Below, one piece after another: positions 3,069 through 38,996 of a stretch of DNA of 42,038 bases. How positions within the stretch are numbered: the first letter of the stretch is position 1; every line of letters begins with the position of its first letter. Both the position numbers and the translations under genes were made by a program. This DNA comes from Candidatus Solibacter sp. Its GTDB lineage: Bacteria > Acidobacteriota > Terriglobia > Bryobacterales > Bryobacteraceae. The notes under the pieces were generated by a model, which saw only the letters and a program-made list of their open reading frames with translations, did no database searches and was not told the DNA's origin. The stretch is taken from positions 1-42,038 of the forward strand of contig JANYJN010000228.1 in NCBI GenBank assembly GCA_025358475.1, read 5' to 3'.

Positions 3069-3740
3069 CTAAACCGCCGCCGCCTCGAACAACCGGCTCG
3101 GAGGAACGCGTTTCCAGTCGGTGAGAAAGCTTTGCAGCCCGGCATCCGTCAACGGGTGCCGGTACAGCGCCTCAAGCATCTCAAGCGGCATGGTGCAGAC
3201 ATCGGCGCCCGCTAGCAGCGAATCCAAAACCTGCTTGACGTTACGGATGCTCGCGGCGAGGATCTTGGTTTCGAAACCATAGTTGTCGTAAATCGCGCGA
3301 ATCTGGCGGATCAGGTCGGCGCCTTCGTGGCCCACCATGTCGAGACGGTGGATGAAAGGGCTGATATAAGTGGCGCCCGCTTTCGCGGCCAGGAAGGCTT
3401 GCACCGGGCTGAAACACAGCGTGACGTTGGTCTTGATGCCTTCGCTCGACAGCACCTTTACGGCCTTGAGCCCTTCGATCATGACCGGCACTTTCACCAC
3501 CGCGTTCTTATGGAAGGCTGCGATCCGGCGGCCTTCGGCGATGATGCCCGGGGCATTCGTGCTGACCGATTCCACGCTGATCGGCCCGTCCACCAATTCG
3601 AAGATCTCGGCGAGAACGTCGTCGAACGGCTTGCCCGAATTTGCGATATGCGTGGGATTAGTGGTCACTCCGTCCACAATGCCCCACGAGTACGCTTCAC
3701 GAATCTGTACGATATCGGCAGTATCAATAAATAGTTGCAT
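3069..3740 (-). CDS. tal: Small (about 220 aa, class 3B) transaldolase of the Tal/Fsa family
   Basis: MQLFIDTADIVQIREAYSWGIVDGVTTNPT at the N-terminus; Schiff-base lysine context NAVVKVPV; TNVTLCFSPVQAFLAAKAGATYISPFIHRLD has Phe where fructose-6-P aldolases have the catalytic Tyr. GGAG RBS precedes the ATG at 3740. Confidence 0.9.
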   Translation of the reverse strand: MQLFIDTADIVQIREAYSWGIVDGVTTNPTHIANSGKPFDDVLAEIFELVDGPISVESVSTNAPGIIAEGRRIAAFHKNAVVKVPVMIEGLKAVKVLSSEGIKTNVTLCFSPVQAFLAAKAGATYISPFIHRLDMVGHEGADLIRQIRAIYDNYGFETKILAASIRNVKQVLDSLLAGADVCTMPLEMLEALYRHPLTDAGLQSFLTDWKRVPPSRLFEAAAV

Positions 3741-3761
3741 TGTATTCTCCAGAACTTCCGT

Positions 3762-5204
3762 CTAAACCTTCCAGCAGATGAGCTTCATCTCGGACATCTC
3801 TTCAGCCGCATACTTTGGACCTTCGCGGCCCATCCCACTCTCTTTCACGCCTCCGTAGGGCATGTGATCTGCGCGGAACATAGGCACGTCGTTGATGATC
3901 ACGCCACCCACTTCGAACTCCAGCGCAGCCCGGAAAGCGCGTTCCAGATCCCTGGTGAAGATCCCGGCCTGCAGACCGTAGACGCTGTCGTTCACCATGT
4001 GGATCGCATCTTCCAGTTTCTGGTAGCGGTTCACCAGCACCACCGGCCCGAAGACCTCCTGGCAGGAAATGCGGGTGGTTCGCGGCGCGTCGGCGAGGAT
4101 CGTGGGCTCGATGGTGGCGTGCTTGCGGCCGCCACCGCAAATCAGACGCGCCCCTTGGCCCTTGGCCTCGGCGATCCAGGATTCCACGCGCACCGCTTCC
4201 GCCTGGGTAATCAGCGACGAGATATCCGTCGCCTCCTCAAAGGGATGGCCGATGCGAAGCTTGCCTGTGGCTGCGGCGAACTTCGCCAGGAACTCTTCCG
4301 CGATGGAATCGTGTACGTAGATCCGCTGCACGGAAATGCACACCTGCCCGCTATGGGAGAAGCTACCCATGACGCAGCGGGCAACTGCCGTGTCGACGTC
4401 GGCATCGGGCTCGATCACCAGCGCGGAGTTGCTTCCCAATTCCAAGGTCACGCGCTTCAAGCCCGCCCTGGCGCGAATCCCAATTCCGACTTCCTTGCTG
4501 CCGGTAAAAGTAATCATCGCCACATGGGGGCTGTCCACTAAAGCGTTCCCGATCAGCGAACCCGGTCCCGTCACCACGTTGTAGGCGCCGGCCGGAGCGC
4601 CCGCCTCCTCCATTACGCGTGCGAAGCGCAACGCGCTAAGCGGCGTGGTGGTGGCCGGCTTATGAACGATGGCGTTGCCCGCCGCCAAAGCCGGAGCCAC
4701 CTTGTGCATCATCAGATTAAAGGGAACGTTGAAAGGAGTGATGGCGCCGATCACGCCCAGCGGTTCGCGCACCGTCATTGCCAGCCGGCCTTTGCCGATA
4801 GGCGCGCCGTCCATCGGAATCACTTCACCGTGGAAATTGCGCGCTACCTCGGCCGAGGCGATCATTGTCTGCAGCGTCCGCTCGGCTTCGCCGCGCGCTT
4901 CCTTCACCGGCTTGCCGGTCTCAAGGCAAATCAGCTTGGCGAAATCCGCGAGATCGCGCTTGACGATTTCCGCCATGCGAACCAGCAAATCCGCCCGCTC
5001 GAAATTGGTGAGACGCCGCATTGCCGCGGCGCCGCGCTTAGCGCCTTCTACGGCCTTCCCCACCACGGCGGAGTCTGCCATGTAGCAAGATCCCACGGGG
5101 CTTCCGTCGTACGGCAACTCGACGGTATGTAACTCCGCGGTCCGTACCCATTCCCCGCCGATGTACATCGGCAGTGTTTCTATTTCTCGCGTGCCACTAG
5201 TCAT
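3762..5204 (-). CDS. NAD(P)+-dependent aldehyde dehydrogenase
   Basis: ALDH signatures are present: PFNVPFNLMMHK, catalytic Glu in LELGSNS, catalytic Cys in GQVCIS, and YGLQAGIFT. The start is set at ATG 5204 (MTSGTREIETLPMYIGGEW), which overlaps the upstream stop as ATGACTAG. The longer ORF to 5366 would run 170 nt into the larA-like gene. Confidence 0.9.
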   Translation of the reverse strand: MTSGTREIETLPMYIGGEWVRTAELHTVELPYDGSPVGSCYMADSAVVGKAVEGAKRGAAAMRRLTNFERADLLVRMAEIVKRDLADFAKLICLETGKPVKEARGEAERTLQTMIASAEVARNFHGEVIPMDGAPIGKGRLAMTVREPLGVIGAITPFNVPFNLMMHKVAPALAAGNAIVHKPATTTPLSALRFARVMEEAGAPAGAYNVVTGPGSLIGNALVDSPHVAMITFTGSKEVGIGIRARAGLKRVTLELGSNSALVIEPDADVDTAVARCVMGSFSHSGQVCISVQRIYVHDSIAEEFLAKFAAATGKLRIGHPFEEATDISSLITQAEAVRVESWIAEAKGQGARLICGGGRKHATIEPTILADAPRTTRISCQEVFGPVVLVNRYQKLEDAIHMVNDSVYGLQAGIFTRDLERAFRAALEFEVGGVIINDVPMFRADHMPYGGVKESGMGREGPKYAAEEMSEMKLICWKV

Positions 5205-6471
5205 TTGTTTTTCTCCCGAAACCACGAAGCGCCGGCGCCGTGAATCCGGCGTGTGGCATGACCGCCACACGGCCCGGAGCCTTGCGCCGGAGCAGTTCCA
5301 ACAGGCGACTTTCATGCTGCGCGGGGTGGACCGCTTGAAATCCGCATCGCTCGACCATACGCGCATCGAGGGTCGTCACCAGGTGAACGTCATAGCGTTT
5401 GCCGAGACGCGCCAGCCAGAGCGCCTTGTGACCGCCGACCACGAAGTTTTCCCTCAACGCACTCTCCATCGCGGCGTCCGTATCGTAGGTGTTCAGATAC
5501 AGTTCCAAATTGGCGCTGCCCAGGCCGTCGCTGCATTCGGCGTAGTAGTAGAGCAATCCGCCGGGACGAAGCGCGGCGCACGCATTCTCCATGCCCTTGT
5601 GGGCCTGGCGCAGATCGATATCCAGGGGCGCTCCGCCGGCCGAGGCGATCACCACGTCGTAAAGACATTCGATTTCGGTGCGCAGCAGCCGGTCCGCGGC
5701 GCGGCAACCTTGTAGGTGCGCCTGCTCCACGTCACCCGCCGCCACATAGAGAAGTTTGCCCGCCGGGCTCAGTACCACATTGACCACGAAATCCGGCCCG
5801 GCCATGCGCGAGCCTTCCAGCATATCTTCGTGTGCGGGGTTCCCGTCCAATACGCCCGCGCGGCAGCGGGGATCGAGCACCATCCGGTGGTTGAACGTCG
5901 TAGTGCGGTTGCCGGCCACCCCGGGGACGAGACTCTTGCGCCCTCCGCTGTAGCCGGCGATTTGATGAAAGATGATCTCGCCGGTGAGGATGATCCGGTC
6001 CGCCTCATACACCCTGCGATTGATCTGCACCCGGTTGCCGAAGCTCGTCGTGCCTACCTCCACCAGATTCGCCTCGTCGTCGCCGTCGTGATCGTAAAGC
6101 CGGATGCGGCGGAAAATCTCCTCCCCCACGATGGCGCGCTGCTCCGCCTCATTTTGCGGCCGGTGCGTACCCAGCGCGAACACGATAAAGATGTCCGCAT
6201 CCGGAATTCCACCGTAGTTCAGCGTGTTCACGATTGGCGGCAGGAACATGTCCGAGCGTGCGAGCCTCGTAATGTCATTCACGATGATGGCCACCGTCTC
6301 GCCCGCCTTCACCAGGCTGGCAAGCGGACCACAGCCCACCGGATGCTCCAACGCGTAAAGAATAGCCCCCGCTTCATCATCCAGCAGCGGAGCCATTGGT
6401 GGAGTGAGCGGATCGGCTTCGACAGCCAACCGGAAACTTGTATTGCCGAACGGCAACGATAGTGGAAGCAT
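5197..6471 (-). CDS. LarA-family (DUF2088) nickel-pincer-dependent 2-hydroxyacid racemase/epimerase homologue
   Basis: Conserved LarA blocks are ALGTHRPQ, GEIIFHQIAGYSGGRKSLVPG (His plus the cofactor-tethering Lys) and TTFNHR (Ni-ligand His). The start is probably ATG 6471 (MLPLSLPFGNTSFRL, like the LarA N-terminus); upstream in-frame starts at 6501 and 6576 cannot be excluded. Confidence 0.85.
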   Translation of the reverse strand: MLPLSLPFGNTSFRLAVEADPLTPPMAPLLDDEAGAILYALEHPVGCGPLASLVKAGETVAIIVNDITRLARSDMFLPPIVNTLNYGGIPDADIFIVFALGTHRPQNEAEQRAIVGEEIFRRIRLYDHDGDDEANLVEVGTTSFGNRVQINRRVYEADRIILTGEIIFHQIAGYSGGRKSLVPGVAGNRTTTFNHRMVLDPRCRAGVLDGNPAHEDMLEGSRMAGPDFVVNVVLSPAGKLLYVAAGDVEQAHLQGCRAADRLLRTEIECLYDVVIASAGGAPLDIDLRQAHKGMENACAALRPGGLLYYYAECSDGLGSANLELYLNTYDTDAAMESALRENFVVGGHKALWLARLGKRYDVHLVTTLDARMVERCGFQAVHPAQHESRLLELLRRKAPGRVAVMPHAGFTAPALRGFGRKTND

Positions 6472-6484
6472 TCTCAATGTTAAG

Positions 6485-6495
6485 ATATCAGATAT
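6485..6495 (-). promoter_or_regulatory. Perfect ATATCaGATAT palindrome / extended -10-like element in front of the larA-like operon
   Basis: The minus strand reads GATAATATCTGATATCTTAACATTGAGAATG, so TG-n-TATCTT ends 10 nt before ATG 6471. Confidence 0.45.
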
Positions 6496-6587
6496 TATCA
6501 TCCGTGACAATACCCCAAAATCCGGCAATTCGGTATTTCCAGACCAAAAATTGTGGGTGTGGATCAAACCAGGCATAAACGATCCTG

Positions 6588-6601
6588 GTATCTGATATGC
6601 T
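6588..6601 (+). promoter_or_regulatory. GTATCtGATAT motif / extended -10-like element (TG-a-TATGCT) in front of the MFS operon
   Basis: GGTATCTGATATGCTATACGACATG: the -10-like hexamer at 6596-6601 is followed 7 nt later by ATG 6609, which is compatible with a leaderless or very short-leader transcript. Confidence 0.45.
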
Positions 6602-7919
6602 ATACGACATGCCCGCTGCCGTTCCGTCGCTGAAATCCATACCCGGCATGCCGCCGCTCATCCGGCAGGTTCGCTGGTGGGTGATGGCGCTGCTGTTGTG
6701 CATCACGATCATCAACTTTGTTGACCGGCAATCCCTCTCTATTGTCGCGCCATTACTCCGCGAATCGCTGAAGCTGAGCAACACCGATTATGGAATCATC
6801 GTAGCCGCTTTCCAGATGGGAATGATGATGGGCGAGTTTCCGATGGGTTCGCTGATGGACCGCTTCGGAGTGAAATTTGGCTTCACGCTGGCGGTCTCAT
6901 GGTGGTCGCTGGCGAACGCATTGCATGCCGTTGCCCGTACCATGCTGCATTTCAGCGTGCTGAGGTTCTGGCTGGGCACCGGGGAATGCGGCAATTTCTC
7001 CGGAGGCATGAAAACGGTGTCGGAGTGGTTTCCGGTGCGGGAGCGGGCCCTTGCGATTGGGATCTTCAACGGCGGCTCCATGATAGGCTCCATCATCGCT
7101 CCGCCGCTGTTGGTTGTGCTGACGTTGAAATTCGGTTGGCACGCGGCATTTCTGTTGCCCAGCGCCTTGGGCTTTGTGTGGGTATTCGCCTGGCGCAAAT
7201 GGTATCGCAGCCCGGAAGATCACCCCTCGATGTCCGCTGTTGAGCGCGCTTATATTATCGACGGACGCGAATCCACCACGGACCAGCCCGCGCCCAGCAA
7301 TAGAGAGTTGTTGAAGTTGCGGCAGACGTGGGCCCTGATGGGCTGCCGGATGCTGGTTGGGCCCGTGGTCCAGTTTTATATCTATTGGCTGCCTGAATAC
7401 CTGTACCGGCAGCGCGGCCTCTCGCTCAAGGAAATCGGCTTGTTCGCGTGGGTGCCTTTCCTGTTCGGCGACATCGGTAGCATCGGTGGCGGCTGGCTGG
7501 CCGGACGGCTGCTCCGGCGCGGTTTCAGCGTCACCGATACCCGGCGGATCACCATGGGCATCGGCGCGGTATGCTGCCTGCTCAGTTTCGCCGTAGTGGG
7601 AGCGCGAACCATTCCGGTGGCGCTGGCGGGAATTTGCTTCGTGCTGCTCGGGCACACCTTCCTCTCCGCCAATATGTTTGCCGCTATCTCCGACGTGTTC
7701 CCCACCAGTGCGGTGGGGCGCGTCACGGCACTCACCGGAATCGCCGGCGGCCTGAGCGGGATGATCTTTCCCCTGCTCACGGGCATTCTGGTGGATCACT
7801 TTTCGTACCTGCCGGTCTTCAGCCTGGCAGCCGTGATGCCCATGGCGGGAAGCATACTCCTGTTTGCCATGGTCCGGAGCCTGCGTCAGGTTTCGCTCGG
7901 CAAGGAGAAAAACTTGTGA
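6597..7919 (+). CDS. MFS transporter, anion:cation symporter (ExuT/hexuronate-galactonate-like) subfamily
   Basis: Twelve-TMS-like profile with VMALLLCITIINFVDRQSLSIVAPLL, RFWLGTGECGNFSGG and WFPVRERALAIGIFNGG. The start is uncertain: ATG 6597 lies inside the promoter-like motif, so ATG 6609 or 6648 is more likely. Confidence 0.85.
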   Translation: MLYDMPAAVPSLKSIPGMPPLIRQVRWWVMALLLCITIINFVDRQSLSIVAPLLRESLKLSNTDYGIIVAAFQMGMMMGEFPMGSLMDRFGVKFGFTLAVSWWSLANALHAVARTMLHFSVLRFWLGTGECGNFSGGMKTVSEWFPVRERALAIGIFNGGSMIGSIIAPPLLVVLTLKFGWHAAFLLPSALGFVWVFAWRKWYRSPEDHPSMSAVERAYIIDGRESTTDQPAPSNRELLKLRQTWALMGCRMLVGPVVQFYIYWLPEYLYRQRGLSLKEIGLFAWVPFLFGDIGSIGGGWLAGRLLRRGFSVTDTRRITMGIGAVCCLLSFAVVGARTIPVALAGICFVLLGHTFLSANMFAAISDVFPTSAVGRVTALTGIAGGLSGMIFPLLTGILVDHFSYLPVFSLAAVMPMAGSILLFAMVRSLRQVSLGKEKNL

Positions 7920-8842
7920 GTTTAAGCTTTCGTGATATCGCGTTCGAACACTGGCAGGACTGCTGTCTGGTGTCGAATGGCTGCATGGAAATGGTGGTGC
8001 CCCGCAGCTTCGGCCCGCGCGTGATGCGCTGCGGTTTTACCGGCGGGGAGAATCTGTTCAAGATCTTTCCCGACGAAGGGCCCGGCGTGCGCGTTCGTGG
8101 TGGCCACCGCCTCTGGGTGGCACCCGAGCGGAAAGAGGTCACCTGGGTATTGGACAACGACCCGGTTGAGTTTGCCACCCTCGAGAACGGGCTGCACGTG
8201 ACAGGGGCGCTGGAGTCCTCCACGGGGCTACAGAAAGAAATGACCATCCATTTCGGTCCCTGCCCGAACGAAGTCGAAATCGTGCACCGCATCGTGAATC
8301 GCAACGTATGGGCGATCGAACTTGCACCGTGGACGCTCACTCAGGCAGCACCCGGTGGGATCGCGCTTTCGGGCTTCCCGCCCCGCGGCAAACACCCGGA
8401 AATGCTGCTGCCCACCCACCCGCTGGTCATGTGGGCGTACACCAAGCTGGGGGACCCGAGGTGGACCTGGGGCGAGCGATTCTTCGCGCTCCGGCAGGAT
8501 CCGGAAGCCGCCGAGCCTCAGAAGATCGGACTTTTCCATGAGCACGCCTGGACGGCTTACCTCCTCGGCAACGAAATCTTCTTCAAATACTCGAAAGCCG
8601 ATCCCACGCGCAGCTACCCGGACTTCGGCTGCTCGGTCGAGATCTTCACGAACCGCTTCATGATGGAGTTGGAAACACTCGGGCCGCTCGGCAAGCTGCA
8701 GCCGGGTGAATCGATCGAGCACACGGAGCGCTGGATCCTGCTTCGCGACGTGAAGCTTCCGGATCTTTCCGACGCCAGTATTGCAAAGGCGTTACAGCCC
8801 GCGCTCGAACGCGTTCTTAGTCTTCAGGAGCAAATTTCATGA
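7916..8842 (+). CDS. Conserved hypothetical protein, possibly mutarotase-like (DUF4380-like) fold
   Basis: GTG 7916 overlaps the MFS stop (GTGA). It reads VSLSFRDIAFEHW...GGHRLWVAPE...ELETLGPLGKLQPGESIEHTERW. The stop overlaps the next start (ATGA at 8839-8842). The long upstream extension of the ORF is inside the MFS gene. Confidence 0.6.
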   Translation: MSLSFRDIAFEHWQDCCLVSNGCMEMVVPRSFGPRVMRCGFTGGENLFKIFPDEGPGVRVRGGHRLWVAPERKEVTWVLDNDPVEFATLENGLHVTGALESSTGLQKEMTIHFGPCPNEVEIVHRIVNRNVWAIELAPWTLTQAAPGGIALSGFPPRGKHPEMLLPTHPLVMWAYTKLGDPRWTWGERFFALRQDPEAAEPQKIGLFHEHAWTAYLLGNEIFFKYSKADPTRSYPDFGCSVEIFTNRFMMELETLGPLGKLQPGESIEHTERWILLRDVKLPDLSDASIAKALQPALERVLSLQEQIS

Positions 8843-9699
8843 GCATCTCTCTTAGCCGCCGCGAACTGATTGCCCTCGTTCCAGCCAGCCTGCTGGCGTT
8901 TAAATCCGAGCTGCGAATGGGATGCCAGACAAACTCCTGGCCCATCGACCCGAAAAAGCTTTCCTCCTTCGCATCCGTACTCGACAAGATGAAGGCGTTC
9001 GGTTTTCAGGGATTCGAAACCAGTTTCCGGAATGTACAGGAACACTCCGGTGAGCCCGGCGAAGTGCGCTCGATGATCGCCAAATCCGGGCAGCGCTTCC
9101 TCGGGGTCCACATTTTCCTGCTCGCATACGATCCGACGTCCCACGTGGCGCCGGCAGATCTGTATCGCAAGGTGGTGGACGGGGCCGCTCCGATGGGCGC
9201 CGAGCGCCTCATCCTGAGTGGCTCCCCCGCCACTACCGACGGCGTTCTGGATCATGCCGCCATCCAGCGCAAGTGTGCGGCGCTCAATGCCGCGGCCGCC
9301 TACGCCAAGTCAAAGGGAATGCGCTTCGCTTATCACAACCATGGGCCGGAGTTTGCCAACGGAGCCGTTGAGATGGAAGCTTTGTACGCTGGCAGCGATC
9401 CCAATCTGGTGCACTTCATTTTCGATACCGGCCATGCCCGGCGCGCCAAGGCAGACGTACCGGCGTTTCTCCTAAAGCATCACTCGCGCATCGACGGTAT
9501 ACACTTGCGCGACCTCAGTGACCGTCCCGGTGACAACCCGGATTTGGGGGCGTTCGACCTGAAGGGGCTCGCCGCCGCCATCGATAAAGTGAAATGGAGC
9601 GGTTGGCTGATCGTCGAGGAAGAGAACGCCATCGGCAAGGCCGGCGACGATGCCGTCCGCCCTGCCCGCGAGGCGTTGCGCGCGCAATTCGGTATCTAA
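8839..9699 (+). CDS. Exported sugar-phosphate isomerase/epimerase (xylose-isomerase-like TIM barrel)
   Basis: Tat-like signal SRRELIALVPASLLA; AP_endonuc_2-type blocks YHNHGPEF, FDTGHA, IHLRD and WSGWLIVEEE; AGGAG RBS. Confidence 0.8.
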   Translation: MSISLSRRELIALVPASLLAFKSELRMGCQTNSWPIDPKKLSSFASVLDKMKAFGFQGFETSFRNVQEHSGEPGEVRSMIAKSGQRFLGVHIFLLAYDPTSHVAPADLYRKVVDGAAPMGAERLILSGSPATTDGVLDHAAIQRKCAALNAAAAYAKSKGMRFAYHNHGPEFANGAVEMEALYAGSDPNLVHFIFDTGHARRAKADVPAFLLKHHSRIDGIHLRDLSDRPGDNPDLGAFDLKGLAAAIDKVKWSGWLIVEEENAIGKAGDDAVRPAREALRAQFGI

Positions 9700-11749: not shown

Positions 11750-11789
11750 TCACATTTTGTGATCGCGGATTTCCTCGGCTTATGCAGCG

Positions 11790-29684: not shown

Positions 29685-29700
29685 CGCTGGGCCAAAAGCT

Positions 29701-29913
29701 CTATTCCGGAGCCGCTCCTTCTTTGTGCGGCAGCTCCACGTAAGAGCCGCCGAAATAACTGTACACGCACCGTTCTGCGTCGATGAGCAGGCGCAGCGCC
29801 TGCTTGCAGTCGTCCTTCGTGCACGTGGCACCGTGTTTGACGATCATGGCTTTCGTTAGATCGCCCGCCTTGAGATTCTTCTTCCCCGCGGATTCCGCGA
29901 CCAACTTATACAT
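29701..29913 (-). CDS. dsrD: Small DsrD-like winged-helix protein (70 aa)
   Basis: KQALRLLIDAERCVYSYFGGSYVEL parallels Desulfovibrio DsrD KKILTALVNDEVLEYWSSGSTTMYGL. The size and dsr context fit. This rests on similarity recalled from memory, not a search. Confidence 0.5.
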   Translation of the reverse strand: MYKLVAESAGKKNLKAGDLTKAMIVKHGATCTKDDCKQALRLLIDAERCVYSYFGGSYVELPHKEGAAPE

Positions 29914-29944
29914 GTCTTCCGCGAGTGCTTCCCTACTGATTGTG

Positions 29945-31159: not shown

Positions 31160-31168
31160 ACCATTGCC

Positions 31169-31888: not shown

Positions 31889-32283
31889 CGCGCAGTCCTC
31901 ACGGCGTTTCCGGGCGAGTTGTGACAATCCCAGCAGTAGGCCGCCCGCACTCCCACGTAAGAGTGGCAGCGGTCGCAGAATTTCGCCCGGTCTTGATGGC
32001 ACTGGGACAGGCACGTGCCCGTCAGGCTGATGTCATAGGTCTTACCGCCGGGGCTGGTATAGCGGCGGACTCCCGTGCGCACCACCTGGTCTCTCCAGGA
32101 GTCCAGCATGCGCATGTGATACGCCTTCATGTACTTGACAGGCGCCACGCATTGCTTGCCGGGCGGCAATTGGAGCGCCGGCCTGGCAGCGGCTCTTAGG
32201 GTAGCCGCGTTGTACCAGAAAGGAAAGCTGGCGATCACGAGGAACACCGCCAGACCCGCGAGAATGATTGGCTGGTCACGCAC
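31885..32283 (-). CDS. dsrJ: DsrJ, membrane-anchored periplasmic triheme cytochrome c
   Basis: N-terminal anchor IILAGLAVFLVIASF and three heme-c motifs: CLSQCH (CX3CH), CDRCH and CWDCH. GTG start at 32283 overlaps the dsrK stop by 8 nt. Confidence 0.85.
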   Translation of the reverse strand: MRDQPIILAGLAVFLVIASFPFWYNAATLRAAARPALQLPPGKQCVAPVKYMKAYHMRMLDSWRDQVVRTGVRRYTSPGGKTYDISLTGTCLSQCHQDRAKFCDRCHSYVGVRAAYCWDCHNSPGNAVRTAR

Positions 32284-33889
32284 CTGCCTGCTCCGTTTGC
32301 GGCGCGAAAGGCTGTCCGCGAAGATCGGTAGTGCGTTCCTTCTCTCCGCTCATCACCAGCGCGTTGCCCAGCAGTTCGTGGACGCCGGCCACTTCCACGC
32401 CGGGCACCCAGTATTCCAGCAGCGTGGGAAGCGTCGCCTTGTCGATCGCGCAGATGCAGGAAAGTAGGTTGACGCCGAATTTCTCCTTCACGTACTTCAC
32501 CGCGTTTGCTCTTGGGAAGCCGCCGCGCATGCGCATCTCGAAGTTTTCGTCGGTCCCAATTCCAGAGCCGCTGCCGCAGCAGAAGGTCTGCTCGCGGATC
32601 GTGTTCTCCGGCATTTCGTGAAACCGGTCGCAGACATTCCGGATGATGTAGCGAGGCTCTTCCAACATGCCCATCGCCCGCGCCGGGTTGCAGGAGTCGT
32701 GGTAAGTGACGTTCCAATGCGCGTTGCGGGCCGGGTCCAGCTTTAGCTTGCCGTGCCGGATCAGGTCCGCCGTGAATTCGCAGATGTGGACCATCTTCGT
32801 GGACCGCGCGTTGTCGAACGCCGTGCCCGTGACCGGGGAAACCGGAGGCTGCAGAAAATCCGCCGGACCGTTCATCGTATCCATATACTGGTTCACGACG
32901 CGCCACATATGTCCGCATTCGCCGCCCAGTATCCACTTGACGCCAAGCCGGCGGGCCTCGCTGTACATCTTCGCGTTCAGCCGCTTCATCATCTCATTGG
33001 AGGTGAACAGCCCGAAATTGCCTCCTTCGGATGCATAGGCGCTGAAGGTGTAGTCGAGCCCCACTTCATGGAACAGCATGAGGTACCCGAGCAGCGTGTA
33101 GTAGTGCGGGGAGCCGAAGTAATCGGCCGACGGAACGACGAATAGGACCTCGGCGCCCTTCTTGTTGATGGGCGCTTCCACGCGGACGCCGATCATCTCC
33201 TCAATCTCGTCCACCGCGAAGTCGATGCTGTCCTTAAACCCGTGCGGTTGGATCCCGAGGTGATTGCCCACGCGGTAGCAGTTGGCCACCGGTTCCTGCA
33301 CCCAATGGATGTTGCAGCCCACCAGGTTCAGAAGTTCGCGTACGATCATGGTGATTTCGGCGGTATCGATTCCGAAGGGGCAGAACACCGAACAGCGGCG
33401 GCACTCGGTGCACTGGTAGAAGTAGTAGAACCACTCCTTCAGCACGTCCTCGGTCAAGTCCCGCGCGCCGGCCAATTTCCCGAGTATCTTACCGGCGGCG
33501 GTGAAGTAGCGCCGGTAGACGGAGCGGATCAGTTCCGCCCGCAGCACCGGCATGTTCTTGGGATCGCCGGAGCCGATGTAGAAGTGGCACTTGTCCGCGC
33601 AGGCGCCGCATCGCACGCAGATATCCATGAACAGGCGGAAGGAGCGGAAGCGCTCCAAGCGGTCCCGCATGCCCTCCAGAACGATCTCTTTCCAATCGGG
33701 CGGCAGTTTCCAATCGGCGTCGGAGGGCTTCCAATTGCGCGCGTTGGGCATCCCCACCTGATCCAGGCTCTTCGGCAGCGCGCTATTGCAATAGGCGCCC
33801 TTCCGATAATTGGCGCTCGGCTCGAGCCAACTCCCCGAAGGAGGCGTGTTGTCGATCTGAACCAGTTCGTCCGGCTTTGGCCACGCCAT
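32276..33889 (-). CDS. dsrK: DsrK, cytoplasmic CCG-domain (HdrD-like) iron-sulfur subunit
   Basis: CVRCGACADKC, CTECRRCSVFCP, HDSCNPARAMG and TFCCGSGSGIG. Confidence 0.9.
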   Translation of the reverse strand: MAWPKPDELVQIDNTPPSGSWLEPSANYRKGAYCNSALPKSLDQVGMPNARNWKPSDADWKLPPDWKEIVLEGMRDRLERFRSFRLFMDICVRCGACADKCHFYIGSGDPKNMPVLRAELIRSVYRRYFTAAGKILGKLAGARDLTEDVLKEWFYYFYQCTECRRCSVFCPFGIDTAEITMIVRELLNLVGCNIHWVQEPVANCYRVGNHLGIQPHGFKDSIDFAVDEIEEMIGVRVEAPINKKGAEVLFVVPSADYFGSPHYYTLLGYLMLFHEVGLDYTFSAYASEGGNFGLFTSNEMMKRLNAKMYSEARRLGVKWILGGECGHMWRVVNQYMDTMNGPADFLQPPVSPVTGTAFDNARSTKMVHICEFTADLIRHGKLKLDPARNAHWNVTYHDSCNPARAMGMLEEPRYIIRNVCDRFHEMPENTIREQTFCCGSGSGIGTDENFEMRMRGGFPRANAVKYVKEKFGVNLLSCICAIDKATLPTLLEYWVPGVEVAGVHELLGNALVMSGEKERTTDLRGQPFAPQTEQAGA

Positions 33890-33891
33890 GG

Positions 33892-34815
33892 TTATTGCTT
33901 CTCCAGCGGGATTCCGGCGGTTCTCATCTTATCTCGAAACTCGTCTTCGAACTGTTCGTAAGTGTGTAACTCGACGGCCGGATTCCACGGGTTCACATGC
34001 CGCTTCATGCGGCTGTTATTGGCCAGATTCCGGGTGGGGCTCAGGAAACTTCCGCCCATGTGCATCAGCTTGCTGAACGGGAACCAGGCGAGCAGTAAGC
34101 TGAGCGTCGCCACGTGAAAGTAAAAAAGCGCGCCCGCATCGGACGGCAGCGCCGGCGACATGGTTGCCAGCCCCAGCGCGTACCGTTTTATTTCCACGAT
34201 GTTCACGCGCGCGAAATAGCGCATGAGGATTCCCGAGCCGGCCAGCGCGAGCAGCAACCCCAGCGCGAAGTAATCGCTGGGAAGCGAGAGATAGCGCAAT
34301 TGCGCTTGCGCCAGCCGCCTGCCTAGCAGGTAAAGCAGCGCAACCAACAGAATCGCGTCCGTCGCGTAGACCACCGGCATTCCGGCCTGGAAAAACCCAT
34401 CCAGCGACTGCAGCGCCAACACCCATCTGGGGGTTGGTTGCAGGAAAAGGCGAAGATGGCGCAGCAGCACGATCAGAAAAGACCAGTGAAACGCCAGCGC
34501 ACCCAACCAAAGCCAGCCGGAGGGTGAGTAGACCAGGCGGGAACCCAGCCGCTCCGGCCGGTGATTGCGCAGCAGCGAACGAAATACCAGCACTTCCGAA
34601 GCCACGCGCGCCACGGCGCCGGCGGTTGTGTAGGGGTTCTCCAGCCAGGAAGCTTTAATCCAAGGCAACGACTTCTGCTGACCGCAGGTGGTGGGAATGC
34701 GGAATGGAACCGGCGCGCGGGACCAACTCAGCACGCGGTAGCCGATGCCCACAAAAAACGCCAGCAAGGCCGCGTAGGGAAGGCCGACCGCAAGAATCAT
34801 GCGCAGTTCCATCAT
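33892..34815 (-). CDS. dsrM: DsrM, NarI-like membrane diheme cytochrome b
   Basis: TMS with paired His (AFHWSFLIVLLRHLRLF and a second set near FYFHVATLS...KLMHMGG). ATG 34815 overlaps the dsrT stop (ATGA). Confidence 0.85.
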   Translation of the reverse strand: MMELRMILAVGLPYAALLAFFVGIGYRVLSWSRAPVPFRIPTTCGQQKSLPWIKASWLENPYTTAGAVARVASEVLVFRSLLRNHRPERLGSRLVYSPSGWLWLGALAFHWSFLIVLLRHLRLFLQPTPRWVLALQSLDGFFQAGMPVVYATDAILLVALLYLLGRRLAQAQLRYLSLPSDYFALGLLLALAGSGILMRYFARVNIVEIKRYALGLATMSPALPSDAGALFYFHVATLSLLLAWFPFSKLMHMGGSFLSPTRNLANNSRMKRHVNPWNPAVELHTYEQFEDEFRDKMRTAGIPLEKQ

Positions 34816-35297
34816 GATTTGGACATTCTTTCGAGCAGAAACCTCCGCCGGCGGGCTTCATTCACCCGCAGCGTCAACAGTCTCTCGCGGCATTGCGTGA
34901 AGGCGTCAAAGGCCATCAGCGCCAGTTGATCGATCTTATTCTCGTGATCGATCCTGCGCTCATTGCAGCCGGACCGCTCTTGTAGCAGCGGCTTCAGCAG
35001 GAACACGAACGATACGGCTTGGGAGGCCGAAGACTCCTGAACCGCCCGGATGCTGAGCAAGTCGTCCAGCACCTGCCGGGCCGTGTCGCATTCGGCCTCG
35101 CCGAGAGCCACGTCCAGCAGCACGGGGAGTCCTTCGCGAAGCGCGTAGCCCACCGGATTAAGGAACCTGTCTTCCCGGCCGAGCAGAACCTGGGCCGTCG
35201 GCTCGGGATACATTTGCACGGTGCGCTCCAGCCAGGCGCTACAGATGGCGCGCTTGTCCTCAACCGGAACGATGTCTTTAGGCCGGGAAACTGCCAC
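34812..35297 (-). CDS. dsrT: DsrT (RsbRD N-terminal-domain protein of dsr loci)
   Basis: AWLERTVQMYPEPTAQVLLGREDRFLNPVGYALREGLPVLLD matches the RsbRD_N/DsrT pattern. GTG start at 35297 is preceded by AAGGAG. Confidence 0.7.
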   Translation of the reverse strand: MAVSRPKDIVPVEDKRAICSAWLERTVQMYPEPTAQVLLGREDRFLNPVGYALREGLPVLLDVALGEAECDTARQVLDDLLSIRAVQESSASQAVSFVFLLKPLLQERSGCNERRIDHENKIDQLALMAFDAFTQCRERLLTLRVNEARRRRFLLERMSKS

Positions 35298-35307
35298 GAC
35301 TACTCCT

Positions 35308-35625
35308 TTACACGCAGCCCGTGGGCTTGGGGAGTCCAGCCAGTTTGCATGCGCCCTTGGCTGGACCCGAAGGGAAGAGTCCGTAGATCTCGTTCAGCTT
35401 GAACCCGGTTTCCTTGCAAACCTTGCGGACCATGGGCGCGATGCCGAATCCCAAGTAATAATTCCGGAGGTAATTGATCACCTTCCAGTGATCCGGCGTC
35501 AGATCCGTGATGTCTTCGCTCTGCGCAAAATCCTTGGCAACGGCTTCGTTCCAGATCTCCGGATTTTCCAAAAAGCCATCTTCGTCCACCTCATAAACCG
35601 TTCCGTTTGCTTCGAATGTCGGCAC
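35308..35625 (-). CDS. dsrC: DsrC (TusE/DsrC family) with both redox-active C-terminal cysteines
   Basis: HWKVINYLRNYY, and the C-terminus GACKLAGLPKPTGCV (Cys-X10-Cys with a penultimate Cys). GTG start at 35625 is preceded by AGAGGAG. Confidence 0.9.
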   Translation of the reverse strand: MPTFEANGTVYEVDEDGFLENPEIWNEAVAKDFAQSEDITDLTPDHWKVINYLRNYYLGFGIAPMVRKVCKETGFKLNEIYGLFPSGPAKGACKLAGLPKPTGCV

Positions 35626-35661
35626 TAGTAGCTCCTCTTTCGAGTTGGGACTTCGGCCATT

Positions 35662-36708
35662 TCAGGCCAAGTCGATATAACCGCTCGGGCAGCCGTCGGT
35701 GCATTTGCCGCACCCGTTACATTGGTCCAAATTAATCCGGTAGCGTCGGCCCGATGGAACTTTTTCAAATCCATGCTTCGTGCAGTACATCCAGCAGTTC
35801 CCACAACCCATGCACATACCGCAAGACATGCAGCGCTTGGACTCAGCCACAGCATCGGCCGCAATCATTGCGGCCGCCGCGGCGTAACGGGGCTGCTCTT
35901 TGTACCACTCCAGCCGCAACCGCTCTTTCGGGGCTGACAGCTTCGGCGCCGGCTTTTGCCCGGCAACACCGCGAATCCGGGCGTCAGCCTCTTCGGCCGC
36001 CAGAAGACCGCTGGCAATAACCGATGCGATCGCGGAAGCATCCGGCGTTTCCATGCTCGCCGTCTCGATCACTGCGCCATAGGCGGCGCGGAGTCCCTCC
36101 ACGTCGATGCCGCCGCAGTCGCACTTCAGTTCCACTCCGAGGTCCAGAATCCTCCGGATCTCGGAGTCCAGGATTTCATCCAGCAAATTCTGCCGCATGA
36201 TGCCGCCGGACTGCGGGGAACTTTCGAAAATTGTGACTTTGTATCCGCGCTTTACCAAGTGGAAGGCCGCGGTGAGCCCCGCCAGACCCGCGCCTACCAC
36301 CGCCACCGAAGTAGGCAACTCTTTCGTCCGGCCGAACTTAAGCGCGTGCTCGATCGCGTAGTCGCCGACGAAACGCTCCACCGCGTTCACCGCTACCGCT
36401 CCTTCCTTCAGGCTCCGGTGGCAGTTGTCCTCGCACGGATGCGAGCACAGCCTGCCGCACGCGGACGGAAACGGATTGCGGGCGGTGATCCTCCGCCACG
36501 CAAACTCTGCGGCCTGCTCCGCCGTCCGGCCTTCCACTTCGGCGTCTGCGATGGTGGCGAGCATTCCGCGCACGTCGCATCCGATGGGACAACCGGCCGC
36601 GCAGGGAGCGGTTTTCGGCGTGTAATGCGGCCGCAAGGGACTCGATTGGTTTTCCGTCGAACCCATCTGGCGGATCAAAGGCTTCTTGACCGTCTTAAAT
36701 AACGCCAT
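35662..36708 (-). CDS. dsrL: Shortened DsrL-like (GltD/NfnB-type) iron-sulfur flavoprotein that appears to lack the NAD(P)H-binding domain, with a C-terminal 2x[4Fe-4S] ferredoxin domain
   Basis: N-terminal Fe-S motifs CAAGCPIGC and PFPSACGRLCSHPCEDNC; FAD fold VAVVGAGLAGLTAAFHLVKRGYKVTIFESSPQSGG; C-terminal CMSCGMCMGCGNC and CNGCGKCTDGCP. It is only 348 aa and sits between dsrB and dsrC. Confidence 0.65.
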   Translation of the reverse strand: MALFKTVKKPLIRQMGSTENQSSPLRPHYTPKTAPCAAGCPIGCDVRGMLATIADAEVEGRTAEQAAEFAWRRITARNPFPSACGRLCSHPCEDNCHRSLKEGAVAVNAVERFVGDYAIEHALKFGRTKELPTSVAVVGAGLAGLTAAFHLVKRGYKVTIFESSPQSGGIMRQNLLDEILDSEIRRILDLGVELKCDCGGIDVEGLRAAYGAVIETASMETPDASAIASVIASGLLAAEEADARIRGVAGQKPAPKLSAPKERLRLEWYKEQPRYAAAAAMIAADAVAESKRCMSCGMCMGCGNCWMYCTKHGFEKVPSGRRYRINLDQCNGCGKCTDGCPSGYIDLA

Positions 36709-36715
36709 AGTACGG

Positions 36716-37798
36716 CTAATACCTTATATGTGTGGACCGCGCGTACGTCAAACCGGCATGCTTGAAATCGTCGAGATGGTAGCGCGTAAACTCAATCCCG
36801 GTCAGCTCGAAGAACCTGGGCCAGCCGATCCGGTCGATCCACTCGCCCATGCGCTCGAACTTCTTGGCGCCGCCGGCGTAGACCTCCACGATGTTGGCCA
36901 CTGCATCCACTACTTCAGGCCAGCGCGGCGGATTGTTGGGCAAGAACGGAATCGCCAGCTTCGAGAACTTCGGAGCCGTACGGGCATTGCTTACCTTGCC
37001 GCCTACGTAGATCGATAACCCGTCGTTTTCCGGATCGTCCAGCGGCATCGCGGGCGAAACCGTGTAGCAGTTTCCGCAGTACATGCACTTCTCGTCAATC
37101 ACGGTCACGGATTCCTTGCCCCCCACCACCGCGGGCCGGATCGCGTCCGTGGGACACGCGGCAATGACGGTGGGAATCTCGCTGACCTTTTTCAAAATAT
37201 CGTGATTGATTTTTGGCGGCTTGCGGTGAATGCCCAGGATGGCGATGTCCGAACAGTGAACGGCCCCGCACATATTCAGGCAGCAAGCCACGGCAATTCG
37301 CACACGCGCCGGCAGAGTTTCTTCGGTGAACCGGGAATAGAGCCGGTCCATCAGCGATTTCACGAGCCCCGAAGCGTCGGTCGCCGCCGAGTGGCAATGA
37401 ATCCAACCCTGGGTATGCACTATGTTACTGATGGATGCGCCCGTGCCCCCCACCGGGAACCCGGCGTCGAAAAGTTCCTTCCGGAGCGGTTCGATGTTGG
37501 CTGGATCCTCCAGCAGGAACTCGATGTTGTTTCGGCTGGTGAACCGCAGATAACCACCGCAATACTTATCCGCGAGCGCCGCGAATAAGCGGATGGTGTC
37601 CACGCTCAACAGGCGCGGCGAGCCGGCGCGAACCGTATAGAGCCGTTCGCCCGATTCAGAGACATGGCACAGCACCCCCGGAGCGATTCCTTCGTGATAC
37701 TGCCATTTCCCGTAATTCCTCTTGATCACCGGGGGGAGAAACTTTTCATAATTGGGCGGTCCGATATCTGTAATTCTTTTTGCTGTTTCGGTTGCCAT
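36716..37798 (-). CDS. dsrB: Dissimilatory sulfite reductase beta subunit
   Basis: Start at ATG 37798, 1 nt after the dsrA stop ([32 protein letters not shown]). [32 protein letters not shown], and a ferredoxin insert CPTDAI...CMYCGNC. Confidence 0.9.
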
Positions 37799-37799
37799 G

Positions 37800-38996
37800 T
37801 TAGTTTGCCTCCTCTTCCCGGAAAAAGATGAACGGGTTGTCGCGAGGCGCCGCCACCATCTCGGGTGTGGGATCCAAACCGATACCATCCAAAAAATTCG
37901 CGAGCCCGACGCGCTGGATCAGTTCGCCGATGCGCTCCCGGTTCTCGCCGTGCTCGTCCCAGAAATCCCACAAGCGCTTGAGCAACTCATTCACGGTCCC
38001 TTCCAGTTCTTCGGCCGCCACGAATGGCACCAGCACGCTCGAAAGCAGCGCGCCCTTGACGATGGGTGCCTTGGCTCCGATCAGAAGCACCGCGCCGCGC
38101 TCCTTGCCGGGCCGGAGCGCCTTGGGCATCACGTTGATGCAATGCATGCAGCGTACGCACTCGCGGTTCTCGATGGTCAACTTGCCATTGTCCCAGTCCA
38201 TGCATCGCGTCGGGCAACGGTCGCAGACATCCCTCCGGATATCGAGGCCAGCGGCGGCATATTCGGCCACCGCGGCGTCGTCCTGCCGGATGGCATCTTT
38301 CCAGGTGCCGATGATGGACAGGTCCGCCCGCGCGCTGGCCGCCACGCAGTCATTAGGACAGCCAGAACATTTGATCTTAAATTTGTACGGAAAAGCGGGC
38401 CGGTGCATCTCGTCCTGGTACTGGTGCGTCAGGTCGTTGCACAGTTTCATCGTGTCGTAGCACGCCCATTCGCAGCGCGCCTGGCCGACACAGGAAGAGG
38501 GGGTTCGAAGCGCGGAGCCCGACCCGCCAAGGTCGAATCCGGCCTGCGTTAGTTCATTGAACGTCGGCTCCAGTTCCGTCGTGTTCGTGCCCAGGAAAAT
38601 GATGTCGCCGGTCGAACCGTGAAAGTTGGTCAGCCCTGAGCCATGCCGCTCCCAAATATCCGCTAGCGTCCGGAGAGCGTCACTGGTGTAGAACCAGCCC
38701 GATGGGTGGTTGACACGGATCGTGTGGAAGTGGGCGATCCGGGGAAACTGCTCCGGCATCGCGCTATACCGGCCGATGACGCCGCCACCGTACCCACGAA
38801 CGCCCACCATACCGCCGTGTTTCCAGTGGCCTCTCTTCTCCTCGTAAGACGACTCGAGTTGTTGCAGGAGGTCATTGCAAGCGGGGTTCTTCTCGCCCGC
38901 CTTTTTGATTTCGGTGACAAAACTGGGCCAGGGACCCTCTTCAAGTTGATCGAGTAGTTTGGTTGGGCGTCTCTCGTCGTCAGGCATTGGTTGCAT
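37800..38996 (-). CDS. dsrA: Dissimilatory sulfite reductase alpha subunit
   Basis: [32 protein letters not shown], siroheme/[4Fe-4S] motifs [13 protein letters not shown] and KCSGCPNDC, and the ferredoxin domain CDRCPTRC...CVRCMHC. ATG 38996, or ATG 38987 three codons further in. Confidence 0.92.

Follow-up and report, generated by a model that had tools for sequence, protein, structure and literature searches.

Can one acidobacterium break down a sulfonated sugar and also reduce the sulfite that is set free? This question is raised by a 42,038-nucleotide stretch of DNA from Candidatus Solibacter sp. (GenBank assembly GCA_025358475.1, contig JANYJN010000228.1), which we call the window. The window is the entire 42-kb contig, so gene absences (sat, apr, qmo and others) speak for the contig only and not for the genome. 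Its source is a Bryobacteraceae-like acidobacterium, and it holds two adjoining functional units. The first (about 0.4-25.7 kb) is a conserved catabolic cluster with suyAB-like genes and the second (25.7-39.0 kb) is a Dsr system. We argue that the first unit probably degrades a sulfonated sugar, for which sulfoquinovose or a glycoside of it is the simplest candidate, to pyruvate and sulfite, and that the Dsr system next to it would be a sulfite-reducing one.

An earlier note on this DNA had proposed a self-contained route from a sulfonate to pyruvate and sulfide. The unity of the carbon branch and the identity of SuyAB have held up. The window has no known sulfoquinovose isomerase or sulfoquinovosidase, though, and the linkage to dsr turned out to be a minority state. 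The family calls are based on an open reading frame (ORF) listing with Pfam, NCBIfam and PDB sequence searches. Neighbourhood searches were anchored on three genes: SuyB, LarA and GntR, the regulator at the junction of the two units. Metagenome contigs of the Joint Genome Institute were scanned with the LarA homologue, and all fetched loci, cited here by L numbers, were scored against the window proteins.

A recurrent operon with SuyAB and a LarA homologue

SuyAB is a two-subunit enzyme of the UxaA family, with a SuyA of about 90-95 residues and a SuyB of about 390 encoded side by side. The window has this layout, since a SuyA ORF of 95 residues overlaps the start of a SuyB ORF of 391-398 residues. 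The tblastn matches of SuyB to annotated plasmids are bimodal: 13 are 60-76% identical and all the others are under 40%. The best match (75-76%) belongs to the Cupriavidus pinatubonensis cluster hpsN-hpsO-MFS-hpsP-suyA-suyB, described as hpsRNOUP-suyAB (PMC11382572), where the SuyA counterpart is 55% identical. Paracoccus versutus SuyB is 65% identical, and the gene that comes next there is a "putative sulfate exporter family transporter". SuyB is not modelled in NCBIfam, where the sole match is galactarate dehydratase (140 bits). Automatic annotation names these genes either "UxaA family hydrolase" or "(2R)-sulfolactate sulfo-lyase". We regard it as established at the sequence level that the SuyAB-like genes, as the earlier note had called them, are true orthologues of sulfolactate sulfo-lyase. 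SuyAB has been described as cleaving (R)-sulfolactate (PMC6018796).

The SuyB of the window is nearer to that of the betaproteobacterium Cupriavidus (76%) than to the copies in other acidobacterial LarA-SuyAB operons of the L099/L103 type (62-66%), and those copies are themselves slightly nearer to Paracoccus SuyB (67-68%). This indicates two putative SuyB subclades in the Acidobacteriota, possibly with horizontal transfer. The unit of a TonB-dependent receptor (TBDR), suyA and suyB is also found in L001-L003, and L089 has an 86% homologue of the second receptor of the window. In L001, where SuyB is 90% identical and neither LarA nor dsr is present, this unit is flanked by sulfatase, DUF4838 and DUF5054/GH38-like genes (2530-6312, 11220-13952), which may point to a connection with glycans, sulfated or otherwise.

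The stereochemistry of the pathway asks for one more enzyme. Sulfoglycolysis yields S-sulfolactate (PMC11382572) and SuyAB is R-specific, therefore a 2-hydroxyacid racemase is needed between the aldehyde dehydrogenase (ALDH) and SuyAB. In C. pinatubonensis HpsN makes R-sulfolactate from 2,3-dihydroxypropane-1-sulfonate (DHPS) and so feeds SuyAB, and the enantiomers are otherwise interconverted by SlcC/ComC (PMC11382572). Profile searches found no Ldh_2-type SlcC/ComC and no HpsN in the window. What the window does have is a homologue of the nickel-pincer racemase LarA (probable true start near 6474, about 425 residues), and such a homologue adjoins SuyAB in 13 metagenome loci. It matches LarAH10 and the malate racemase LarAH6 at about 390 bits each, and it falls under the cut-off of every LarAH model (393 vs 540, 391 vs 500, 317 vs 462, 280 vs 460), so that it belongs to none of the defined substrate families (lactate, malate, 2-hydroxyglutarate, gluconate, LarAH10). 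Its nearest PDB entry is the malate racemase Mar2 (6d6z, 284 bits). The motifs GTHR, FHQIAGYSGGRK (the FHxxAGYSGGxK pattern) and NH align with Mar2, so the cofactor and catalytic motifs are kept, with the catalytic His residues, the Lys that binds the cofactor and the His that is a ligand of Ni. Malate is the carboxylate analogue of sulfolactate. We hold with moderate confidence that this LarA-family enzyme would invert (S)- to (R)-sulfolactate. As the racemase candidate of the earlier note it fits the stereochemistry and lies nearest to malate racemases, outside every LarAH cut-off.

Known LarA homologues epimerise gluconate and mannonate, and racemise lactate, glycerate and malate (PMC7583248, PMC11770544). 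The text of a 2024 substrate survey of the superfamily does not contain "sulfo", and sulfolactate is not among the substrates mentioned. Our literature search found no LarA-type sulfolactate racemase. No plasmid record matches the window LarA at more than 37%, which means there is no independent proteobacterial example of a LarA-SuyAB pair.

The remaining carbon-branch genes are tied to these two by their neighbourhoods. L099 reads TBDR-XI-GFO-LarA-ALDH-Tal-MFS-KduI-SuyA-SuyB, where XI is a xylose-isomerase-like protein, GFO a GFO/IDH/MocA oxidoreductase, Tal a transaldolase, MFS a major facilitator superfamily transporter and KduI a KduI-like cupin. L132 has LarA-Tal-MFS-SuyA-SuyB, L100 has LarA-Tal-SuyA-SuyB, L094 has LarA-ALDH-SuyA-SuyB and L103 has SuyA-SuyB-LarA-ALDH-GntR. 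Two contigs, L088 (FWPV01005632.1) and L089 (OCZT010000586.1), repeat the gene set of the window. The strings are mostly co-directional and tight, their order varies by locus, and they extend down to about 52% LarA identity. SuyAB is present in 9, ALDH in 10, the KduI-like cupin in 9, Tal in 6 and GntR in 12 of the 21 LarA-anchored loci of at least 10 kb. All SuyB copies of LarA-linked loci are 61-78% identical to C. pinatubonensis SuyB. Since the order is shuffled and the neighbourhood is kept, LarA, ALDH, Tal, the KduI-like cupin, MFS and SuyAB form one pathway. The evidence is strong that the Tal-ALDH-LarA block and SuyAB are functionally linked as one catabolic unit. These two of the blocks drawn up by the earlier note do occur together at operon scale on many Acidobacteriota contigs, whereas its COG2855 block is only an occasional member and dsr a minority one. 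Co-occurrence in related genomes, which the note had set as its own refuting test, came out in its favor for these two blocks. The gene families, the SuyAB orthology, the operon-level linkage and the dsr adjacency in two lineages are direct results of the computation.

Pfam and NCBIfam place Tal, ALDH and LarA in the families that had been named for them. Tal carries the Schiff-base lysine motif VVKVP and is operonic with ALDH and LarA in the window, L085, L088, L089, L099, L100, L132, L141 and L142. ALDH lies directly between LarA and Tal; its probable true start is near 5204, giving about 480 residues, and its homologues have 480-481. The KduI-like cupin has weak NCBIfam matches to KduI and IolB and no PDB sequence match. 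It is co-located with LarA, ALDH and Tal in L085, L088, L089, L099, L112, L115, L141 and L142, and it and the XI-like TIM-barrel proteins are the only isomerase candidates in the window. A sugar kinase is missing from the cluster, which is also true of the sulfo-transaldolase (sulfo-TAL) pathway. This absence, the joint operon of Tal and ALDH, the two mutarotase-like proteins and a transporter of the anion type together make the signature of transaldolase-route sulfoglycolysis. A sulfosugar may be taken as the substrate with moderate confidence.

The pathway would begin at the outer membrane, where the TonB-type receptors and the porin would take up the sugar. Tat-exported (twin-arginine translocation) GFO/XI-like pairs and a mutarotase would process it in the periplasm, and the anion-type MFS transporter would import it. 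The KduI-like cupin, helped by the mutarotase-like protein, would carry out the isomerisation. Tal would split sulfofructose into fructose-6-phosphate and (S)-sulfolactaldehyde, ALDH would oxidise the latter to (S)-sulfolactate, the LarA homologue would turn this into (R)-sulfolactate, and SuyAB would cleave it to pyruvate and sulfite. Dsr would then reduce the sulfite to sulfide; alternatively, it may leave through the YeiH-family exporter. We infer here the substrate, every enzymatic step except that of SuyAB, the role of the racemase and the use of sulfite as electron acceptor. In its fullest form the proposal is that one acidobacterium takes up the sulfosugar, cleaves it by transaldolase, desulfonates it and respires its own sulfite through Dsr. 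LarA would replace SlcC/ComC, a KduI/IolB-like protein would be the sulfoquinovose isomerase, and periplasmic GFO/XI-like enzymes would stand in for GH31/GH188. All three would be kinds of enzyme new to sulfonate metabolism. We consider that whole combination possible but doubtful.

The Dsr system and its adjacency to the cluster

Is the sulfite reduced where it is made? The second unit has the gene order dsrK2-M2-N-P-O-J-K-M-T-C-L'-B-A (25756-38996). The earlier note had described a complete Dsr system. Profile matches bear out its dsrAB, dsrC, dsrT, dsrMKJOP and dsrN, and there is a second dsrMK pair besides. DsrC keeps both C-terminal cysteines (a C...C-V terminus) and ends in GACKLAGLPKPTGCV. 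Completeness is another matter, since dsrD is absent and DsrL is truncated. A dsrD-like gene had been reported, but at 25.7-39.0 kb there is no ORF for it and no intergenic room, and the sole unassigned small ORF has no match. DsrD is an allosteric activator typical of reductive systems. The dsrL-like gene does encode a DsrL homologue. It is 348 residues long, however, and aligns only to residues 1-224 and 418-552 of the normal 553-residue acidobacterial DsrL. The N-terminal iron-sulfur part, the FAD fold and the C-terminal ferredoxin are kept, and the NAD(P)H-binding domain of about 190 residues is missing, which implies a DsrL without the usual NAD(P)H binding. The window protein is not a full-length NAD(P)H:acceptor oxidoreductase of the DsrL-2 type. 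DsrL has 551-582 residues in about 60 other acidobacterial dsr loci. The closest relative, L005, has the 348-residue form as well, 72% identical from end to end, so the short length does not stem from the assembly. Further short forms are possible in L046 (397 residues), L062 (395) and L072 (308). Between dsrB and dsrL of L004 (18863-19297) lies a 144-residue ORF with a faint rubrerythrin-like match that is absent from the window.

The absence of dsrD and the truncation of DsrL make the direction and completeness of this Dsr system less clear, so reductive use is not assured. Acidobacterial DsrAB is classed as the reductive bacterial type (PMC6018796; 2023 review), and DsrL-2C next to acidobacterial DsrAB has been noted in published work. 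We argue that sulfite reduction would be the most natural fate of sulfite derived from SuyAB, with YeiH export or another role of Dsr as the alternative.

The linkage of dsr to sulfonate genes, as claimed in the earlier note, can be counted. Our dsr survey covered 1.34 Mb in 80 loci that surround relatives of DsrP; the loci are species representatives and come without exception from metagenome-assembled genomes (MAGs) of Acidobacteriota type. Cluster genes lie within 10 kb of dsr in three of them: L005, L081 and L083. L005 is part of a complete Bryobacteraceae MAG chromosome (L005/L085, OY764903.1) with DsrA and DsrB 88% identical to those of the window. L081 and L083 (the latter on the same contig as L004) are from two Bryobacterales MAGs, and in them GntR-suyA-suyB convergently abuts dsrP. 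In L005/L085 and L142 dsr runs to dsrN and is followed by some redox or sirohaem genes, by GntR and finally, in the opposite orientation to that of the window, by KduI-(porin)-Tal-ALDH-LarA. L088 ends in Tal-KduI-GntR-TP_methylase, which matches the L142 junction, and it too is probably dsr-adjacent. GntR orthologues (64-78%) occupy the same junction in L004, L005/L085 and L142 and stand beside the cluster in L141. The genes between dsrN and GntR differ. L005 (13096-15672) and L085 (16351-21133) have a CCG/iron-sulfur protein, a Fer4_11 protein and an NrfD-multihaem cytochrome fusion in place of dsrM2K2, and L142 (6919-9809) has sirohaem-synthesis genes (CysG-like, TP_methylase). The window GntR has no meaningful similarity to the suyAB-linked GntR of Paracoccus, and orthology with it was rejected.

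With the cluster at one or two random sites per genome, 0.2-0.5 adjacencies would be expected by chance in 1.34 Mb. Three were observed (P ~0.001-0.02), and counted as about two independent lineages this becomes P ~0.02-0.10. The linkage is real and recurrent, in two lineages with differing arrangements, but it is facultative and a minority state. The sulfonate cluster is a widespread acidobacterial trait that neighbours dsr in a subset of Dsr-carrying lineages.

One can imagine that the adjacency is a historical accident in one or two lineages. The sulfite would then normally be exported or oxidised aerobically, and Dsr would serve the respiration of inorganic sulfite or sulfate, sulfur oxidation or disproportionation. 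The counts speak for this: 77 of the 80 dsr loci are without cluster genes, none of the 21 long LarA-anchored loci has dsr nearby, and L001, L087 and L141 hold cluster copies without it. Compared with the window, L005/L142 also have the two blocks in another orientation and with other genes between them, the window encodes an exporter of the YeiH type, and shared ancestry leaves only the two or so independent events counted above. The combination of a missing dsrD with a DsrL-type gene is read as ambiguous or oxidative in the 2023 review. Against this, the linkage in clade A survived inversion and insertions, that in clade B, where suyAB abuts dsrP, arose in a different form, and a GntR/FCD regulator stands at the junction in both. 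The DsrAB type is the reductive one, and suyAB was found specifically in MAGs with only sulfite reduction (Hausmann et al., PMC6018796). We think an accident of this kind rather unlikely, but it is the alternative to be taken most seriously. Obligatory coupling of the sulfonate cluster to Dsr should be held with only moderate to weak confidence.

Sulfonated sugar or another substrate

A number of results weigh against the sulfosugar branch as we propose it. The best NCBIfam match of ALDH is lactaldehyde dehydrogenase (512 bits, under cut-off) and SafD reaches 374 bits. In the PDB, ALDH21 reaches 356 bits and 8c54, listed as a succinate semialdehyde dehydrogenase, 289 bits. We take 8c54 to be RlGabD, the sulfolactaldehyde dehydrogenase of Rhizobium leguminosarum. 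The best matches of ALDH are thus lactaldehyde and succinate-semialdehyde dehydrogenases, and its likeness to known sulfolactaldehyde dehydrogenases is no more than generic. Tal is nearer to a canonical transaldolase (Thermoplasma acidophilum Tal, 247 bits) than to BmSF-TAL (8bc3, 159 bits). It must be noted that SftT itself is 41.7% identical to TacTal and keeps activity on sedoheptulose 7-phosphate (PMC7491151; PMC12890257). No ORF of the window is a sulfoquinovose isomerase of the YihS/SqvD type, and the KduI-like cupin is a remote member of its family. The window has no GH31 sulfoquinovosidase domain either. The first GFO protein (GFO1) was considered as an NAD-dependent GH188 sulfoquinovosidase and rejected: its match to 8qc2 reaches no more than 84 bits, and R166/L170/K172, the residues with which GH188 binds the sulfonate (PMC11465081), are not conserved and align to K/T/I beside an 11-residue insertion. 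Neither the window nor any fetched locus has the cofactor-synthesis genes larB, larC and larE. No Tal is within view in the LarA-linked clusters whose LarA is 50-56% identical, and in L087 a fucosidase, GH38 and RhaM stand next to SuyAB-TBDR-XI-GFO-MFS-LarA, with both ALDH and Tal missing. Finally, the COG2855 protein is 29% identical to the putative sulfate exporter beside suyAB in P. versutus. This makes the two members of a common family, and orthology is not claimed. The SuyZ/TauZ-type label of the earlier note is thus right as to the PF03601/YeiH family, and the protein is an occasional cluster member. In L089 its gene stands directly between LysR and SuyA (LysR-YeiH-SuyA-SuyB).

These results leave room for a scenario in which only the SuyAB step is related to sulfonates. 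A C3 sulfonate such as sulfolactate, racemic or S-enriched, would be imported, racemised by LarA and cleaved by SuyAB. Tal, ALDH, the KduI-like cupin, the mutarotases and the GFO/XI proteins would be a co-regulated pathway for a non-sulfonated sugar or sugar acid. No two genes of the set are indeed as tightly paired as LarA and SuyAB (under 200 nt between them in L103, L109 and L113), Tal is missing in L105, L112 and L131, and both ALDH and Tal are missing in L087 and L109. Such a scenario would also suit a Tal that resembles ordinary transaldolases, a window without a sulfoquinovosidase or a known sulfoquinovose isomerase, and GFO/XI pairs and TonB receptors that are very common in such genomes. 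However, it leaves an aldehyde dehydrogenase without a role if sulfolactate is imported, and in many loci only a few bases separate ALDH from LarA on one side and from Tal or SuyAB on the other. Two pathways are also hard to square with L099 and L132, where Tal and MFS (and KduI in L099) are inserted co-directionally between LarA and SuyAB. We judge this scenario improbable, and we continue to favor one pathway for a sulfonated sugar.

It is very unlikely that the cluster has nothing to do with sulfonates and that SuyAB and LarA act on a non-sulfonated 2-hydroxy acid (as a C2-epimerase with a UxaA-type dehydratase, or as lactate racemase with lactaldehyde dehydrogenase on products of 6-deoxy sugars): the galactarate dehydratase match, the lactaldehyde dehydrogenase match, the range of known LarA substrates and the fucosidase and RhaM of L087 would suit this, yet SuyB and SuyA are 76% and 55% identical across phyla to a studied hps-suy cluster while other UxaA-family proteins stay under 40%, lactate has no beta leaving group for a SuyAB-type lyase, and a sulfate-exporter-family gene and dsr lie alongside.

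The other genes of the first unit concern uptake and periplasmic processing (Table 1). The porin and two TonB receptors of the earlier note were recovered, all on the minus strand. The porin has a 70% homologue at the same position in L089, and L142 has a 463-residue ORF between Tal and KduI. The MFS transporter is kept next to LarA in L085-L089, L099 and L141; it has no meaningful similarity to HpsU of C. pinatubonensis, and orthology with HpsU was rejected. As the earlier note had it, this transporter is of the anion type and lies on the opposite strand. Its picture of genes on one strand needs amending, since the minus strand holds nearly all of them and the plus strand only the three-gene operon of MFS, mutarotase-like and XI-like proteins (6597-9699). 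The mutarotase-like protein has a 301-residue homologue at the same place in L085; a single-sequence structure prediction of the window protein was unusable (mean pLDDT 36). The aldose 1-epimerase has a signal-like N-terminus, so it is periplasmic, and it is kept in L085 and L088. All three XI-like and both GFO proteins have twin-arginine starts (e.g. NRRSFLVAAG, SRRTFLVAAS), which makes it probable that they reach the periplasm already folded and carrying their cofactor. The first GFO/XI pair has weak PDB similarity to 3-keto-glycoside enzymes (DgpA, 8tcs/8tcd), from which a role in glycoside processing would be a speculative reading. The TBDR-XI-GFO module is kept next to LarA in L085, L087, L099, L100 and L141. 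The second pair has 86% orthologues at the same position in L005. The LysR next to suyAB, also named in the earlier note, has a 69% homologue beside COG2855-SuyA-SuyB in L089. The content that had been assigned to 3069-38996 does lie there, and the cluster is wider, with the KduI-like cupin and porin to the left and the second GFO/XI pair to the right. The contig end cuts through a tmRNA gene, of which the 3' part remains (41903-42038, minus strand; Rfam RF00023, model positions 236-374, 64.8 bits). A genomic island was considered on account of it and dropped, since the window lacks an integrase, does not repeat the tmRNA end and is without a shift in composition.

Table 1. Features of the window, with coordinates, strand and the matches on which each call is based
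Feature	Coordinates	Strand	Evidence
KduI/IolB-family cupin, candidate cytoplasmic aldose-ketose isomerase (sulfoquinovose to sulfofructose)	437-1237	-	Pfam KduI 46.8 bits
Outer-membrane porin-like protein, N-terminal coiled coil	1612-2988	-	Pfam DcaP 23.9 bits, under cut-off
Short (TalC/FSA-type) transaldolase, candidate sulfofructose transaldolase	3069-3740	-	TIGR00875 280 bits, over cut-off
NAD(P)-dependent aldehyde dehydrogenase, candidate sulfolactaldehyde dehydrogenase	3762-5366	-	Pfam Aldedh 522 bits
LarA-superfamily (nickel-pincer) 2-hydroxyacid racemase homologue	5197-6576	-	Pfam Lar_N + LarA_C
MFS transporter, anion:cation symporter type	6597-7919	+	MFS_1 176 bits; TIGR00893 D-galactonate-transporter subfamily 274 bits, under cut-off
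TTE1925-family mutarotase-like protein, cytoplasmic	7937-8842	+	NCBIfam NF052227 265 bits, under cut-off; no Pfam match
Xylose-isomerase-like TIM-barrel protein	8839-9699	+	AP_endonuc_2; RR (Tat-like) N-terminus SRRELIAL
Aldose 1-epimerase with signal peptide	9710-10741	-	Aldose_epim 83 bits
YeiH/PF03601 (COG2855) putative sulfate/sulfite exporter	10790-11749	-	Cons_hypoth698 153 bits; TIGR00698 81 bits, under cut-off
Short-chain dehydrogenase	11790-12506	-	adh_short 189 bits
Tat-signal GFO/IDH/MocA oxidoreductase (GFO1)	12652-13893	-	Pfam; RR N-terminus
Xylose-isomerase-like TIM-barrel protein	13963-14823	-	Pfam; RR N-terminus
TonB-dependent-receptor-like outer-membrane protein	14841-18326	-	CarboxypepD_reg + Plug + OMP_b-brl_4
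LysR-family regulator, adjoining suyB	18382-19377	-	Pfam HTH_1 + LysR_substrate
suyB-like, candidate (R)-sulfolactate sulfo-lyase large subunit	19436-20632	-	Pfam GD_AH_second + GD_AH_C
suyA-like, candidate (R)-sulfolactate sulfo-lyase small subunit	20626-20913	-	95-residue ORF, weak SAF match
TonB-dependent-receptor-like protein, directly upstream of suyA	21207-24563	-	Pfam
GntR/FCD regulator, junction of sulfonate cluster and dsr	24993-25694	-	Pfam
dsrK2 (paralogous DsrMK pair)	25756-27363	-	CCG/Fer4_8
dsrM2 (paralogous DsrMK pair)	27360-28268	-	Nitrate_red_gam
dsrN (sirohaem amidase homologue)	28287-29831	-	GATase_3 + CbiA
dsrP, dsrO, dsrJ, dsrK, dsrM	29945-34815	-	NrfD, Fer4_11, three CxxCH (DsrJ), CCG/Fer4, Nitrate_red_gam
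dsrT	34812-35297	-	RsbRD_N
dsrC	35308-35625	-	DsrC 127 bits
Short DsrL-like iron-sulfur flavoprotein	35662-36708	-	Fer4_20 + FAD Rossmann + C-terminal ferredoxin; 348 residues
dsrB	36716-37888	-	TIGR02066 508 bits, over cut-off
dsrA	37800-38996	-	TIGR02064 579 bits, over cut-off
Second pair of Tat-signal GFO/IDH/MocA and xylose-isomerase-like TIM-barrel proteins, upstream of dsrA	39101-41169	-	Pfam; RR N-termini

Comparison with known systems

The current explanation of the complete anaerobic breakdown of sulfoquinovose to sulfide is cross-feeding between two organisms. For low-sulfate peat it has been proposed that Dsr-carrying Acidobacteria draw sulfite from organosulfonates as a hidden supply, but no pathway was defined. 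The operon that recurs here is a concrete gene set for that proposal, and sulfolactate would be a predicted new substrate of the nickel-pincer LarA superfamily. If this is true, the mismatch between S- and R-sulfolactate is solved by one enzyme instead of two dehydrogenases, and the potential for sulfonate degradation would be annotated differently in soil metagenomes, in which such genes at present go by the names "lactate racemase", "UxaA family hydrolase" and "transaldolase".

The presence of suyAB in SbA4 and SbA5, two dsr MAGs with sulfite reduction only, was reported by Hausmann et al. (2018; PMC6018796), who proposed that organosulfonates supply the sulfite. The co-occurrence in peatland Acidobacteria cited in the earlier note is therefore borne out, and both it and the general idea were already known. 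SbA4/SbA5 and the window are alike in phylum, habitat type, dsrAB followed by a dsrL-dsrC pair, and a paralogous dsrM2K2. In that work suyAB (with SlcC/ComC in SbA5) are isolated markers, and it does not describe a Tal-ALDH-LarA-KduI-MFS-SuyAB operon, a sulfosugar origin, a LarA racemase or dsr linkage. The window differs in having no SlcC/ComC, no dsrD and a truncated DsrL. No acidobacterial sulfoquinovose pathway came up in our literature search. The conserved acidobacterial operon, its putative transaldolase branch, the unconventional entry enzymes, the suggested racemase role of LarA and the dsr adjacency appear unreported.

The malate racemases (Mar2/LarAH6, 6d6z; PMC7583248, PMC11770544) share their fold and their cofactor and catalytic motifs with the window LarA. 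They act on a 2-hydroxy acid whose C3 bears an anionic group, as that of sulfolactate does. The window protein differs in lying outside all NCBIfam LarAH cut-offs and in having a sulfolactate lyase as its genomic partner.

The sulfo-TAL systems of Bacillus aryabhattai/megaterium and gut Firmicutes (PMC7491151; PMC12890257) share with the window a short transaldolase, an NAD+-dependent ALDH, a mutarotase, an MFS transporter, a GntR regulator, the lack of a sugar kinase and, as predicted for the window, sulfolactate as product. The Firmicutes clusters encode a sulfoquinovosidase of GH31, an isomerase of the YihS/SqvD type, DUF4867 and a TauE exporter, and the sulfolactate or DHPS is excreted. 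None of these genes is in the window, which has a KduI-like cupin, periplasmic GFO/XI-like pairs and TonB receptors instead, and desulfonation is predicted in the same cell.

Sulfosugar cleavage and SuyAB in one organism, as we propose, have precedents. This coupling has been shown for sulfofucose in the tandem sulfofucolytic/SuyAB system of Paracoccus wurundjeri (PMC12421959) and predicted for some GH188-linked actinobacterial SuyAB clusters (PMC11465081); the sulfonate is thereby mineralised as far as sulfite. These systems differ from ours in that racemisation is assigned to the two dehydrogenases SlcC/ComC (or a 3-phosphoglycerate-dehydrogenase homologue), the upper pathway is of the Entner-Doudoroff or Embden-Meyerhof-Parnas type, and there is no link to Dsr. 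The lower end of the pathway has its precedent in Desulfovibrio sp. DF1 and Bilophila wadsworthia (PMC6278857), where DsrAB turns the sulfite from SuyAB into sulfide in organosulfonate respiration, as would happen here. These bacteria rely on C3 sulfonates excreted by a separate sulfoquinovose fermenter, whereas the window has the sugar branch and Dsr on one contig.

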